DNA of 63,622 nucleotides, filler included, from Dirinaria sp. TL-2023a (Eukaryota): the NCBI GenBank assembly GCA_051941275.1. It is 26 parts of 26 records of this genome, joined end to end, with 100 filler letters (N's around TTAATTAATTAA, not from the genome) between each part and the next. Parts side by side here need not be neighbours in the genome. Positions count along the whole stretch, not along the records: positions 12,424 to 14,798 come from JAVEBF010002301.1; 25 more parts are not named here. One strand, written 5' to 3'. A program made the position numbers and the translations under genes. The notes beneath the pieces were generated by a model. That model made no database searches, was not told the origin of the DNA, and saw only the letters and a list, made by a program, of their open reading frames with translations. Shown here piece by piece: positions 12,424-29,586 of this stretch. The stretch's first letter is position 1. Each line of letters opens with the position of its first letter.

Positions 12424-12642
12424 TTCATGATCCAGCTCTTGGAGTTGTCTTTCGAGTTCGTGGAGCTCGCTCTGTTGGTACAGCAGATTACGTGCACTCA
12501 ATCGCTCGAACCTTCGGTATATAGCTGCGTCTCGGTCTCGAGCGATGAATTCCGCAAACGTGGGGTAGCCTCCTAGCTGTCGCGGAGAGCTAGACTGTTC
12601 TGCTAGCTCGATGTCTACATTTTGCGCTCGTCGTTGAAACAT
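12424..12642 (-). CDS. DUF6594-like protein, N-terminal part (3'-truncated)
   Basis: GYPTFAEFIARDRDAAIYRRFERLSARNLLYQQSELHELE matches the recalled GYP-x-FRRF-L-ARNLLYLQ-EL pattern. Confidence 0.8.
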
Positions 12643-13121
12643 CTATTGGTGTATCATGATTTCGGAACACGATAATGGCGTCATCCTTGATTCTTTGCTC
12701 TCGTCGCAGCATGATGAGGCTGCAGATATGCATGGGTAAAAGATCAGGTGACCTCTGACGTATCTCTGCTCACAAGGCTGGGCTTACCAGGCTGAAGTGT
12801 GCTGACGCCTACCCACCTCTTGTCCTTGCACCTTTCATCTACATCATCTTTCATGTATCGAGCCGTTCATCACCAGTGCCAATACATCGACAACAGGCTC
12901 TAGTTGTGAGCTGCGAGGTAAAAGAGATACCTACGGTATCATGGCACTTTTTGGAAGCTAATGCTCTCTAGTCCGGAAACGATAAAGCCTTGTTTTATCT
13001 TTCGCAGTGGGAAGAGCTGCGGAGAAATCTGTTTCCGCGGACTTTTTGAAGTTCAAAGCGGACAGGACTTGGAGTGATAAAACCTAGATACTCCAGAGTG
13101 CCTCATATACTCGTGCCTATC

Positions 13122-14798
13122 ATGGTTATCTTACTTGAAGATCGATTAGAAGTAAGTATTGGTTAATGAACTGTTGAACGCACTAATGATATATTTTAAG
13201 AGACGGGACAAGCATTTAGAAGTAGTAGGTATCGACTGATCTAATGAATTCACTGCTAATCGTATACTAATTCCTGACCTAAAGCTCTTTGGTCAGTCGG
13301 TAAGTAGTGATCACTGATCTAGCAAACGCATTATTAATATATCGAAAGATATGTATTCGGCTTCGGGCCTATGTAAGTAGTGATCACTGATCTAGCAAAC
13401 GCATTATTAATATATCGAAAGCAAATTGATCTGCTTCGGGCCTATGTAAGTAGTGATGTCTGATCTGGCAAACGCATTGTTAATATACAATAGGAAATTG
13501 TGTATGGAGGAATAGTAGGAGGGCAGCAGAGAGGAGAGCCCGGAAAGACTTCAATATCAAATCGCAGTCCACTGCGAACCGTTAGCGACAATCCCAAGGG
13601 CAAGATTTCAAAGTCCAAACGCGGTCTTGCCAGCTTCGTCAATGGCGCACGGCTCTCCGTAATTGCGGATACGGGTGCGACCAAGAATTTTATATCGAAA
13701 GAGTATGCAGAAGAGCGGCAAATGGTTATGGAAAAAACGCCCTACTCGTTCCAGCTGGGAAATTCCAGCGTCGTCAAATCAATGGGTACGGTCGTGGTTG
13801 ATTATGCATTCGCAGAGGAGCCGTCGAAGATATACAAGCTCGTTTGCCACGTTCTTCCGCAGTGTGCCTATGATCTGATTCTCGGCAACGCCTTTCTTGT
13901 TGACACAGAGACGCTATCTAAACATCGACGCCGCTTGACTGAATGTCTTTTTTCGGTCGTCAACATGTTTCACTTCAATTTTCTGGGCAATGATTGTCAC
14001 TTGCTCAAAGGGAGATTAGACGATCAGTACCCTGCCTATGCTCTCCCGGATACCGGCGCTGAAAGGAATGTTATGGACTTGACGTATGTATCCCATACGC
14101 ATAGGCCGTTCAATATTTGGAAAAGGTTGCTAATTAGTCTTGCATGATAGCTTTGCCCTGCAGCATGGCCTTAAAGTTCGTCAAGAGTCAAGGCATCGTG
14201 GCTGCCTACAGTTTGCGGATGGCACGATCCAGGAAACAGTCGGCAAGGTACACACCTACTGGACATTTGATTCAGGCGATAGAATTCCAATCACCTTCGA
14301 AATCCTGGAAAACTGCTGTCACGATGTCATACTTGGAGAGGATGTTCTCTGGAATCATGACGTCTTTAGTCTCCATACAGCTTCAATGATCATTGCCGCA
14401 CAAATGGATGTGCTTGACAGACTAGCGCCATTCAGATATGAGCGAAGGTTGGAAAAGTTTTTCGGTAAAGGAGAAGCCGAAGGTGGGCCCCCTGAACCAT
14501 ACTTTGCAGAGCATAGGCTGAACCCGACAGGCGAGAACGCTGATCCTCAGCCGACAGCTATGGAAGTCAGAGCAGCTGAGGAGGAGCGACGGCGACACTG
14601 GGATCACAAATACGGCTTCGATGGAGCCAAAGCCACTACAGTGGAGCGAGTCGCTGAAGAAGCTCGTCGAGCGCGTTACGAAGCAGATATAGGACGTTCC
14701 CGACATCCACTAGTTCCCAGTATTCCAACTGCAAGTACTATAGGGCCATATAACGAAGCGCATCGGCCGTTGAGTCAGAGCCCGCAAACAAGTCAGAA
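13122..14798 (+). CDS. Aspartic protease with two tandem retropepsin-like domains and an N-terminal micro-exon array (3'-truncated)
   Basis: Two D-T-G motifs (IADTGATKNFIS, LPDTGAERNVMD), each followed by a D-L/V-ILG loop. Exons 13122-13151, 13201-13224, 13285-13299, 13349-13372, 13422-13445, 13494-14083, 14151-end all join in frame. Confidence 0.8.
13300..13493 (+). repeat. 73-bp tandem repeat, about 2.7 copies (49-nt intron + 24-nt exon)
   Basis: GTAAGTAGTGATCACTGATCTAGCAAACGCATTATTAATATATCGAAAG at 13300 and 13373; diverged copy at 13446. Confidence 0.95.
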
Positions 14799-14898: not shown

Positions 14899-17272
14899 TC
14901 TTCTTGCTAATATTGGGAATCCGGAGTTCATTGGAATATCGCCATTAGCTATCCACGAAGAAATAAACAGTCCGGGAAGACGGGTGACCAAGGTACCTGC
15001 TTCTTCTAGTCCACCAAAAGCGAAAGAAATCACTCTGCTCATGGTGTCCACACCATTGGCAACCGAACAAGTAGTCCAAGTGGGTATAATGGCCTCGACA
15101 AAACACTACTTTCAGACTAAATCGCGGCTGCTGATTGAAGGTGATCTCATACCTGTGACGTTTGACATCGAGGCCAGTAGAATGCTAGCTGGAAACTCTA
15201 CAGCCTCTGACGTGGATGCACAGGTGCCGGACCTACTTTCGTTGTCTTTGGAGGGCAGACAAAGGAGCGGCGGCTTGGGCCTTGCTTGGTTTCGTGTCGC
15301 AAAAGTCGTGGCTACCGATTCTCAGGACAATAACATTTCACCTGATATATGGGGAGGTGCCGTGTATATGGACCCCTCTGTTACGCGAACTATCCAGGCG
15401 GGTAATGAACGATGTAAATTACCATCCTCAGAAAGCGGCCTCGAGTATTACCTTGGGTTGAAGCCCGCTCCCAAGCCACTTCCATCCACAGATGTTGTTG
15501 GACGAGCTATCAAACGAGTTCCTAAAACCTACATTTCGCCGCTGCGGCGCCGTCTGCGAGAACTCATAGCTGCAGCAACTAGCCCTCGAGCGATCCACTT
15601 CCGTGTAGATCCAGTCGTCATACTCCTGCATTCTAGCCAAAGGAATGTGGGCAAGGCAACCATTGCCACTCAATCAGTATCTGACCTGGGTCTGCACGCC
15701 TTCAAAATCGACGCATATGACATTCTCACCGAAGGTAGCGCAGGCGGCGACGTGAAGACGGAAGGGATATTCCAAGCCCGCGTCGAGCGAGCTCTCACGT
15801 GCGGAGCGCAGTACACTGCTATCATTATCCGGCATATCGAAGCACTGACTGCCTCACGCATGATCAGCGCCCTCAAAGATGCCATATCCTCGTCTCGAGC
15901 TTTAATTGCTACCACCTCTGATATCGAAAACCTCCCTGAATCTCTTCGTAGTATCTTTACGCACGAGCTTGAACTGCCCGCTCCGGACGAAGGTGAGCGA
16001 GAAGGTCTCCTTCACAATATCATCCTTGACCGTGGCCTGCGTCTCTGCCCATCTGTCGATATTGCATCCGTAGCGCTCAAATCCGCCGCTCTGGTTGCCG
16101 GCGATCTAGTAGACGTAGTCGACCGTGCAGTCACCGCCCGCCAAATTCGCCTGGAAACGCTTCTGGCATCTAATGCTCCCTCTAACAGTCAGGTATTAAT
16201 CCGAGACATCCTCCTCACAGGGGATCAGTCCGTGCACAGCTTGACATCTTCCGACTTCGATTCCGCTCTGACCACTGCGCGCAAATCATTTGCTGCCAGC
16301 ATCGGCGCCCCCAAAATCCCTTCCGTTGCTTGGTCGGACGTTGGCGGCCTGGCTCACATCAAAGACTCGATCATCGAAACAATCCAACTCCCACTGACTC
16401 GTCCGGAGCTCTTTTCGCGCGGGATGAAAAAACGCTCGGGAATCCTCTTCTACGGACCCCCGGGCACGGGAAAGACGCTCCTCGCCAAAGCCATCGCAAC
16501 CGAATTCTCGCTCAATTTCTTCTCCGTCAAAGGACCGGAGCTGTTGAACATGTACATCGGCGAATCGGAAGCCAACGTACGCCGGGTATTCCAAAAGGCG
16601 CGCGACGCCCGACCGTGTGTGGTGTTCTTCGACGAACTCGACTCCGTGGCGCCGAAACGCGGCAACCAAGGTGACAGCGGCGGCGTCATGGACCGGATCG
16701 TCTCGCAGCTCCTCGCCGAGCTGGACGGGATGTCGGACAGCGAGGACGGCGCGCAGCAGCGGGGCGGCGTCTTCGTCATCGGAGCCACCAATCGCCCGGA
16801 CCTGCTCGATCAGGCCCTCCTCCGCTCAGGCCGCTTCGACAAAATGCTCTACCTCGGCATCCCGGACACGCACGAGAAACAACTCACCATCCTCCAAGCC
16901 CTGACCCGCAAATTCTCCCTCGCAGCCGATTGCAGCCTCGACAGAGTCGTCGCCTCGCTCCCTTTCACGTACACGGGCGCCGATCTCTACGCGCTTGCTT
17001 CGGACGCCATGATCAAAGCCATCACTCGCAAAGCGGACGCCGTGGATGCGAAGATCAAAGCCTTCCCCGGGGGAGAAGTCAGCAAAGCATATTTCTTCGA
17101 CCATCTAGCCACGGAAGACGATATCAGTGTCACGGTGACGGAAGCGGATTTCGAGATCGCGAGAAAGAGCCTCGTGGGCAGTGTCAGTGCCAAGGAATTG
17201 GAGCATTATCAGCGCGTTAGAAACGCGTTTGAGGGGAATGAGTTTGGAAGGAGGGAGGAGAGGAAAGGGAAC
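14899..17272 (+). CDS. PEX6: Peroxisomal AAA ATPase peroxin-6 (truncated at both ends)
   Basis: SIGAPKIPSVAWSDVGGL, GMKKRSGILFYGPPGTGKT, FFDELDSVAPKRGNQGDSGGVMDRIVSQLLAELDGM; degenerate D1 Walker A. Confidence 0.97.
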
Positions 17273-25706: not shown

Positions 25707-26096
25707 CTAAGCATAGAATACCCTCGCTGTGATCGAGCGAGGAGTAGCTGTGGGAGCTATGTTCGTCGAGAGGGAAAGTTTGGGGAGACCGAAGCCGTTG
25801 ACACCGCTGCCGCTTGGGTGCGGGTGATTGTGATGTCCAGTTCCGGTGGGCCCAGTCCAGGTGCCGTTCCGATGACAGTGGGCCCCTGACGCCTGCGCGG
25901 TGCCGTCTGTCTGCGGGCCGTGAGGGCCGTGGCAAGGGTGATGATGGCCAGCCGAGGCGGTGGGGAAGTGTGAACGGTGATGTGTGGCCGTGCCCAAGGA
26001 AACCGGATTTGGCTCAATGGGGCGAACGGCGGCATTGGCGAATGCAGAGAGAGCAAGGAGGAGGACAGCGGTAGCCAGGGACTTGACAGATGCCAT
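25707..26096 (-). CDS. Small secreted His/Gly-rich protein (129 aa)
   Basis: Signal peptide MASVKSLATAVLLLALSAFANA; 14 His in the central region. Confidence 0.7.
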   Translation of the reverse strand: MASVKSLATAVLLLALSAFANAAVRPIEPNPVSLGTATHHRSHFPTASAGHHHPCHGPHGPQTDGTAQASGAHCHRNGTWTGPTGTGHHNHPHPSGSGVNGFGLPKLSLSTNIAPTATPRSITARVFYA

Positions 26097-27231
26097 GACG
26101 AAAGAGCTGGATTGCTGGAAAGAGTGACTTTGGTAAGTAGTTTGTCAAACACTTGTCGAGCGAGTGAATGTGATTCTGAATGATGGTGCTGATCGAGTGT
26201 AGAGTCAAGCTGTGGTCTTATATGGAGCATGTTAGTGCGGTCGGCAAATGAAACCATGGTTTGGCTGTGAAGGTGTCGATGAACACAGCCCTCTGTTTAG
26301 CCAGGTACCATGCGAGTCCGGACATCCAGGGAACCGACCGTGTTGGCCAGCGACTCGCATTATTGTGTCCTTCGATACCTGTGTGAGATTGACAGCTTCT
26401 TTGAGGCTGTGATAGCATGATAGGGCGAAATGAGGAACAGACAAAGCAGACCAGAATATATTCAGGTACTGCGGAGAAACCAAAACCAAGCACAAGGCCC
26501 GAAAAGAAACAAAGACGGCAGGAGACGAGGCCAGATTCATATCATCATGCATATATATATATCACCATACTTGAGAAGAAGACGCAATTACCGACATATT
26601 CAATGCAATGCAGTGTGAGCAATGGACATCTCGATAACGCGAGATTTAAGAAATCAATCGCAGTAACTGCAGCATGGTTTAGTACCAGCTGAGGCGACTT
26701 CTTCCTTAATATAAAAACAGCCGGCAAACACGAAGAGAAAATGATATGTCCGGAGTGGGCTTGCCAAAAAACCGCAGAGAACACATTTCAGCATGAAACT
26801 GGGAAAAGAGTTCGAGACGTCTTACGCAAGACCCATGAATGTTGAGCTGTGCAACACGCCATAACAGTCAATAGTCAGAAAGCCGATGATTGAGCGCGAT
26901 AATCTGAAGGAGAGTTCATGCAAATGCACGGGTCGAAGAGGGAAGAGCGACGAGGATAGAGGTGAATCTGACGCCTCAGATGATGATAGGAGGATAATAA
27001 TTCTTGATGGTGGGCTGCACAACAAGCGAACCGTCAACCGGCAATGCTAAGCATTCATGGTAGTGAGTCTTGTGGGGATGTTGGAGGTTGCGATACATTC
27101 GAAGTGCCAGCATAAAGTAAGGTAGGGTGAGNNNNNNNNNNNNNNNNNNNNNNNNNNNNNNNNNNNNNNNNNNNNTTAATTAATTAANNNNNNNNNNNNN
27201 NNNNNNNNNNNNNNNNNNNNNNNNNNNNNNN

Positions 27232-29398: not shown

Positions 29399-29586
29399 TG
29401 TTAGAACCGGTGCAGAGCTCTGGTCAATGCAGGTATGATTAACTAAGGATATTATCACTAAGGAAGGAAGAAGAAGGAAAACTAGATACAATAGGGGGTC
29501 CCAGGTATATATGCGTGTGTGCGGGTGTCGGGTAAACACCGCGATCGGGTTAGCGCATTACCCCTGAGAACCCTGGGAGGTGTTGC
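29399..29586. mobile_element. Possible LTR end, truncated by the contig end
   Basis: Begins TGTTAG; a purine-rich stretch and TATATA follow; composition changes at a contig break. No second copy is available to confirm. Confidence 0.3.

Follow-up and report, generated by a model that had tools for sequence, protein, structure and literature searches.

Short phase-0 exons at the N-terminus of a predicted single-chain double retropepsin in Dirinaria sp.: a leader with signs of diversifying selection beside a DUF6594 gene

The window analyzed in this study, a stretch of 63,622 nucleotides from Dirinaria sp. TL-2023a (assembly GCA_051941275.1), consists of 26 unrelated contigs of about 2.3-2.4 kb each, joined by linkers. 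One of them (positions 12424-14798, G000:C2301) carries a gene in which five micro-exons, together 39 codons of about 450, form a spliced leader in front of a predicted double retropepsin; a membrane-protein gene of the DUF6594 family is located head-to-head with it. Judged from codon-position counts, the leader exons are under diversifying selection, and the observed variation is a matter of DNA differences among gene copies, not of splice forms. We suggest, with a probability of about 0.55, that the leader serves a protease-effector module of non-self recognition as its variable sensor or bait, its exons diversifying and its cassettes being swapped via the introns.

The first-pass annotation had described five phase-0 micro-exons, separated by GT..AG introns, upstream of the protease frame; all are located where it placed them, on the plus strand, and their reading frame continues into the protease exon at 13494. 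Micro-exon 1 (13122-13151, 30 nt) contains the start codon; the protein P0002 begins here, and RNA contigs of a relative match up to 13124. It is followed by intron 1 (13152-13200, 49 nt), micro-exon 2 (13201-13224, 24 nt), intron 2 (13225-13284, 60 nt), micro-exon 3 (13285-13299, 15 nt), intron 3 (13300-13348, 49 nt), micro-exon 4 (13349-13372, 24 nt), intron 4 (13373-13421, 49 nt), micro-exon 5 (13422-13445, 24 nt), and intron 5 (13446-13493, 48 nt). The four internal micro-exons are all multiples of three and free of stops, and each leader intron of the window would bring an in-frame stop if retained. A chain of five consecutive splice signals is found at the leader, whereas the other 51 contig strands of the window yield no more than two and none of 2000 dinucleotide shuffles exceeds two, in a test that is lenient because its donor/branch/acceptor pattern was written after the leader introns had been seen. 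The public gene model (P0001) is 5'-partial and begins at the big exon; as gene callers miss the leader, similar cases may hide in annotated genomes.

Introns 3 and 4 are identical, as had been noted, and intron 5 is a diverged copy (42 of 48 aligned positions match); a repeat finder delimits three 73-nt tandem units at 100/90/64%. Intron 1 is a diverged member of the same family, identical to intron 3 at 34 of 49 positions, a score reached in none of 2000 shuffles. The kinship of intron 2 is weak, its score being reached in 18 of 2000 shuffles against intron 1 and in 322 of 2000 against intron 3. Since intron 1 also belongs to the family, the array is older than its last duplication. The earlier proposal of a recent gain by tandem duplication thus holds for growth by copying of an intron+exon unit, but not for the age of the array, which, intron 1 included, predates one recent duplication. 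All five assembly matches to the 5' motif of intron 3 lie within two copies of the locus and none elsewhere; the intron-1 motif has 16 matches versus 12 for a control, the exact ones only at these two copies. An introner or other mobile intron was rejected as a candidate, the motifs being confined to the two locus copies with no spread to unrelated genes. A 10-nt palindrome is present at 13306-13315 and 13379-13388; it occurs in exactly two introns per copy (introns 3 and 4 in the second copy as well), flanking one exon.

The second copy of the locus is found in the same assembly (L002, G000:C2663). It may be an allele from a second genotype or a paralog: a long twin was found for one of eight neighboring contigs (among 40 of 79 candidates scored), and the DUF6594 3' end matching the locus is the only one in the assembly. 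The unit number, which had been suggested as worth comparing, does vary, with five micro-exons in the window and four in L002. Exons 1, 2, and 4 differ between the copies at 19 of 78 nt, versus 11 of 206 in four introns (Fisher p 1.4e-5); the 5' flank differs at 21 of 466. Intron 3 is identical in both copies, intron 2 matches at 59 of 60 positions, and the counterpart of micro-exon 3 has 24 nt and is barely alignable. In exon 1, six of ten codons differ, all of them with a change of amino acid, and in exon 4 seven of eight, through ten differences of which none falls at a third position; exon 2 is the least variable (one silent and one replacement difference). Taken together, exons 1, 2, and 4 show 18 non-silent and 1 silent differences (proportions pN 0.30 and pS 0.06, respectively), compared with 12 and 13 in the first protease lobe (pN 0.03, pS 0.12; exons versus lobe, Fisher p 0.001). 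In the leader pN is above pS (p 0.028) and amounts to 5.2 times the pooled rate of introns, flank, and silent sites.

The repeated units show the same rhythm. Exons 4 and 5 differ by seven substitutions, all at codon positions 1-2, and the three genomic 24-nt units require a minimum of 6, 9, and 0 changes at codon positions 1, 2, and 3 (p 0.002). When the unit of the RNA relative is added by eye, none of the 8 third positions has changed (0 of 21 changes), and each of the 16 first and second positions varies. Between the window and this relative, the 18 comparable codons (exon 1, exon 5, and the start of the big exon) contain 15 differences, none at a third position (12 read by eye). That the differences follow a period of three in the predicted frame independently indicates coding exons; since the changes keep to codon positions, they point to selection for amino-acid change and not to drift or a mutator. 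The excess of amino-acid change suggests a part that recognizes something foreign, for which such a pattern would be expected. A targeted mutator or repeat-induced point mutation was considered and rejected, since the substitutions comprise all base types and depend on codon position.

The first codons of exon 4 resemble the L002 unit, and exon 5 resembles the unit of the RNA relative; exons 4 and 5 share their last 13 nt and the preceding intron. Exon 4 was not copied from the L002 unit, because 10 of 24 nt differ. Unequal exchange between differing copies, via the near-identical introns, would account for these units no less well than a single tandem duplication after which four codons underwent seven replacements.

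The RNA data come from two runs (X2 and X3) of one lichen sample and belong to a relative about 90% identical in the protease, not to the window's own strain; a further run, X1, covers 14538-14793 only. The leader is part of the transcripts, as the first-pass annotation had expected: RNA contigs of the relative run from the same ATG to the big exon and are spliced. Intron 5 is removed at exactly the predicted junction in both contigs, and the counterpart of micro-exon 5 is joined directly to the big exon; placing the first three junctions of the relative's leader would require its DNA. The leader has 30 residues in the relative versus 39 in the window. In the X3 contig 104 letters separate the ATG from the big exon, compared with 153, that is, 49 more, in X2. 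The extra letters match window positions 13375-13434 with one difference and represent intron 3/4 in the +1 frame, starting with GC and not GT (from the P0002 and P0210 proteins and reading by eye). As this block is present in X2 and absent in X3, the intron is retained in one contig and spliced in the other. The counterpart of intron 4, with its GC donor, is identical at 48 of 49 positions, whereas in the protease exon 56 of 570 nt differ. The GT-to-GC change also deletes the +1-frame stop in the counterpart of 13373-13421, and in the retained form one open frame, beginning at a second ATG in exon 1, crosses the intron and continues into the protease (P0210, 471 aa). Retention in the relative possibly gives a second N-terminus.

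The big exon (13494-14083, plus strand) contains about 10 hypervariable codons, a basic linker, the first retropepsin lobe, and the second catalytic D-T-G (Pfam PF13650, E 1.2e-9). It is followed on the same strand by intron 6 (14084-14150, 67 nt, phase 2; the RNA joint skips 109 positions with 42 letters between, leaving 67) and by a last exon part (14151-14798), cut by the contig end, with the rest of the second lobe and a conserved helical tail. Within this part, an in-frame stop-free intron (14483-14530, plus strand, 48 nt) is spliced in the relative's RNA, P0002 being without these 16 residues, and kept in the public model. The product is predicted to be a single-chain double retropepsin with proteolytic activity. 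In the predicted model the two lobes in one chain and the helical tail are confident (predicted local distance difference test, pLDDT, about 90 for the tail helices), the best fold-search matches are tethered HIV protease dimers, and the two catalytic aspartates are retained in 70 and 75, respectively, of 75 aligned rows. Pfam recognizes only aspartic protease families in P0002, and an Atlas search with this protein returned only generic retropepsin clusters. Residues 1-61 of the model are unstructured and mostly under pLDDT 50, and the leader is probably a disordered N-terminal module. Among 32 homologs, whose gene models vary in quality, the N-termini sort into 19 unrelated groups; a single group has 13 members, some with PF10373. 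A retrotransposon protease was rejected as an identity for the gene, which bears introns and lies on a contig without pol; the true pol hits are elsewhere (L038, L039).

The 5' part of the DUF6594 gene (PF20237, Pfam E 1.5e-15) occupies 12424-12642 on the minus strand, is cut by the contig end, and is covered by RNA contigs; over 73 aa the fragment is 97% identical to a full-length relative of 294 aa (P0164). Between the two genes, an intron of 50 nt (12748-12797, plus strand, GT..AG), whose joint appears in a single low-depth contig from the relative's RNA, lies 5' of the ATG, probably in the 5' untranslated region, and a second 5' untranslated intron of 70 nt (12918-12987, plus strand, GT..AG) is joined in the X2 and X3 contigs. 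A low-depth spliced contig (12635-12917, with a plus-strand intron) extends to the DUF6594 start codon, and the protease and DUF6594 transcripts may touch or overlap. The predicted DUF6594 model is all-helical and weak (pLDDT 65.7, predicted template-modeling score 0.37); its fold has no PDB match at E 0.001, the best being Z 7.7 to generic helices, and an Atlas search with DUF6594 gave no hit outside its own family.

The divergent pair is also found in the distant loci L003, L004-L006, and L008. Among these loci, the DUF6594 and protease regions are 81% identical, and the N-terminal region barely aligns. In Bacidia the DUF6594 and protease genes carry adjacent locus tags. Among the 14 DUF6594-bearing contigs of the window's genome, several of which are too short to judge the neighbors, 4 have a divergent retropepsin-like open reading frame (ORF), and one more has one 5 kb away. 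Besides the pair in the window, the genome has three divergent pairs of DUF6594 with a single-lobe retropepsin-like ORF, at L040 (606-2491), L041 (3167-5600), and L045 (G000:C189, 3351-6251); the N-terminal exon of the L041 protease is helical. Other DUF6594 neighbors are an ORF with a caspase-like motif (seen by eye, no Pfam hit) or PNP_UDP-type ORFs (with Pfam support for L051 only), at L043 (3-926), L051 (2054-3154), and L049 (1256-2428).

According to the explanation that we favor, the spliced leader would be the N-terminal module of a cytoplasmic single-chain aspartic protease, and its near-fixed introns would allow 8-residue cassettes to be gained, lost, or exchanged through unequal crossing-over or gene conversion. 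Such changes would be safe for the frame because all leader introns are in phase 0 and several are near-identical; variety would thus be made mainly between alleles or copies. The leader would probably define what the protease senses, either as a binding specificity or as bait sites for a foreign enzyme, and the protease and DUF6594 would constitute a two-gene membrane-effector module of non-self defense, working like the fungal gasdermin/protease pairs. We infer recombination through the introns and, by analogy, a putative sensing role and an action of the protease on DUF6594. A narrower and doubtful version makes the leader a cassette tripwire: each 24-nt exon would be an 8-residue bait, a foreign enzyme that cuts or binds it would unleash the retropepsin on DUF6594, and the introns would serve as recombination handles, with weak donors and skipping as a possible second layer of diversity. 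Eight residues correspond roughly to the footprint of a protease cleft, and the bait idea builds on this correspondence. About 80% of het-Q1 homologs have a protease neighbor (PMC8851545), and het systems often consist of two linked polymorphic genes (PMC10197012).

Several observations weigh against the favored explanation. The selection signal comes from three copies and few codons, by simple counting without a likelihood model, in pairs that share branches. L002 looks broken, with a one-base net frameshift at the start of the big exon (778-810) and a stop at about 1308-1310, before the second catalytic motif; it is probably a null allele or a pseudogene, and some of its changes may therefore post-date loss of function. 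Exon 2 is nearly constant. No micro-exon chain was found in the distant pair loci or at the genome's other paired proteases, and in another fungus, four genomes that are nearly identical (L004-L006, L008) have 0-1 changes in a long protease N-terminus; the leader is thus lineage-specific. The three other protease neighbors within the genome score below the Pfam cut-offs, and DUF6594 is not recognizable by Pfam as a gasdermin or any pore former. As for the distribution of the leader, a metagenome scan yielded nine loci, none close and four with too little upstream DNA, and searches of proteins and representatives gave no further close leader besides P0002 and P0210.

The array might instead exist for alternative splicing, one gene giving many N-termini by exon skipping, as the first-pass annotation had proposed. 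This reading is compatible with selection on the exons and agrees with the stop-free internal exons, all four multiples of three, with the diversification of Tuber nank genes via codon-sized spliced exons (PMC4986451), and with a fold prediction in which the palindromes of introns 3 and 4 pair and loop out exon 4. However, neither of the two RNA contigs across the leader skips an exon, one being fully spliced and the other intron-retained, with the reservation that contigs hide rare forms; the sole variant is thus intron retention, and the palindrome, reached in 200 of 3000 shuffles, is not significant alone. Exon skipping is rare in ascomycetes. We regard skipping as the purpose of the array as rather unlikely. 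Also unlikely is a reading that accepts the selection but traces it to another conflict, such as a toxin-antidote or meiotic-drive pair or the choice of lichen partners, instead of defense or allorecognition. Tight linkage of two genes, a broken copy such as L002, and fast change would be equally expected there, and in the RNA relative the protease region diverges more (56 of 570 nt) than the DUF6594 gene (11 of 255). Nevertheless, the pair is widespread among fungi, where its N-termini are unrelated, and each genome has several paralogs of it; moreover, DUF6594 also neighbors a PNP_UDP gene. PNP_UDP is a domain of the NOD-like receptor (NLR) type.

Neutral drift of a dispensable leader, in which repeat slippage multiplies an intron-containing unit in the manner of Cryptococcus CNN00420, would draw on a published mechanism (PMC2395259), on the predicted disorder of the leader, and on the free replacement of N-termini across the family and the broken state of one copy. 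We consider it quite improbable: drift would leave exons no more diverged than introns, whereas 24% and 5% are observed, and would place one third of the changes at third positions, whereas 0 of 15 are found there, or 0 of 21 with the RNA unit added by eye. Finally, the fifth unit could be an assembly chimera of two haplotypes joined via the identical 49-nt intron, considering that the genome is fragmented and metagenome-assembled with two copies of the locus, and that exons 4 and 5 resemble the units of L002 and of the RNA relative, respectively. Such an artifact seems very improbable, for the longest exact repeat is 49 nt against contig overlaps of 141 nt, which suggests a word size capable of resolving it, and the selection signal is independent of the fifth unit.

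Intron multiplication by repeat expansion and micro-exon diversification in Tuber nank and schistosome genes are already known. The locus resembles Cryptococcus CNN00420 (PMC2395259) in the tandem duplication of exon ends with a whole intron, in identical introns, and in copy numbers that differ between copies; here, however, the exons are of 15-30 nt and rewritten at codon positions 1-2 while the introns stay fixed, and the available part of the CNN00420 account describes no such selection. The nank genes of Tuber melanosporum (NACHT-ANK; PMC4986451, PMC9815663, PMC10197012) are likewise fungal genes likely involved in non-self recognition and diversified via tiny in-frame exons, but they encode NLRs and use 3-nt exons and alternative splicing, whereas here a protease has exons of 5-10 codons and diversity among DNA copies. 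The micro-exon genes (MEGs) of Schistosoma share small symmetric exons and raised dN/dS, and VAL-6 combines a MEG-like part with an ordinary domain (PMC4350168); MEGs consist almost wholly of micro-exons, compared with 39 codons of about 450 here, and their products are secreted and exon skipping has been shown for them. Fungal gasdermin/HET-Q2-like clusters (PMC8851545) also place a protease that bears additional, variable domains next to a candidate effector at the membrane, but their proteases are of the S8 or CHAT type, in contrast to the double retropepsin here, whose partner is DUF6594 and not a recognized gasdermin. With the retropepsins of clan AA (HIV protease, Ddi1) the product shares the fold and the two D-T/S-G motifs, but it has two lobes in one chain and is encoded by an intron-bearing host gene; the Ddi1 ortholog of the genome is a separate gene (L037). 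Introner-like elements are long, stably folded introns (PMC3609843), whereas these have 48-60 nt, and intron 3 folds at -3.0 kcal/mol. The locus thus lies outside introners, MEGs, nank, and gasdermin clusters, from each of which it departs in at least one tested feature.

A literature search, made mostly without subscription papers, found no account of DUF6594 or of the retropepsin pair, nor any lichen micro-exon leader described as being under positive selection, and a term search of the available text of PMC12881547 and PMC9815663 found no mention of aspartic or retropepsin effectors; work on fungal microexons is called limited in a Trichoderma paper (PMC11121469). Fungal pairs of a protease and a membrane protein are numerous and obscure in purpose, and the targets sensed by fungal non-self systems are largely open. 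The locus pinpoints, within 40-50 codons, the residues pressed to change, and so offers a direct handle on protease activation. It gives the first evidence encountered of an evolutionary conflict around the retropepsin/DUF6594 pair, and it is a clear example of introns better conserved than the neighboring exons. The tripwire, if true, would be a fungal immune pathway not yet described, one that generates its own diversity.

On other contigs of the window, an AAA-ATPase gene, apparently PEX6-like, is located at 14899-17272. The following contig (17373-19745) is AT-rich (G+C fraction 0.34), and its frames are short and broken; it may be a transposon in decay. A stretch of 1.27 kb at about 25863-27131 has a 92% twin on G000:C794, and a repeat of about 190 nt at about 29399-29586 is present in many genome copies, 82-96% identical among the 30 of 44 matches listed.
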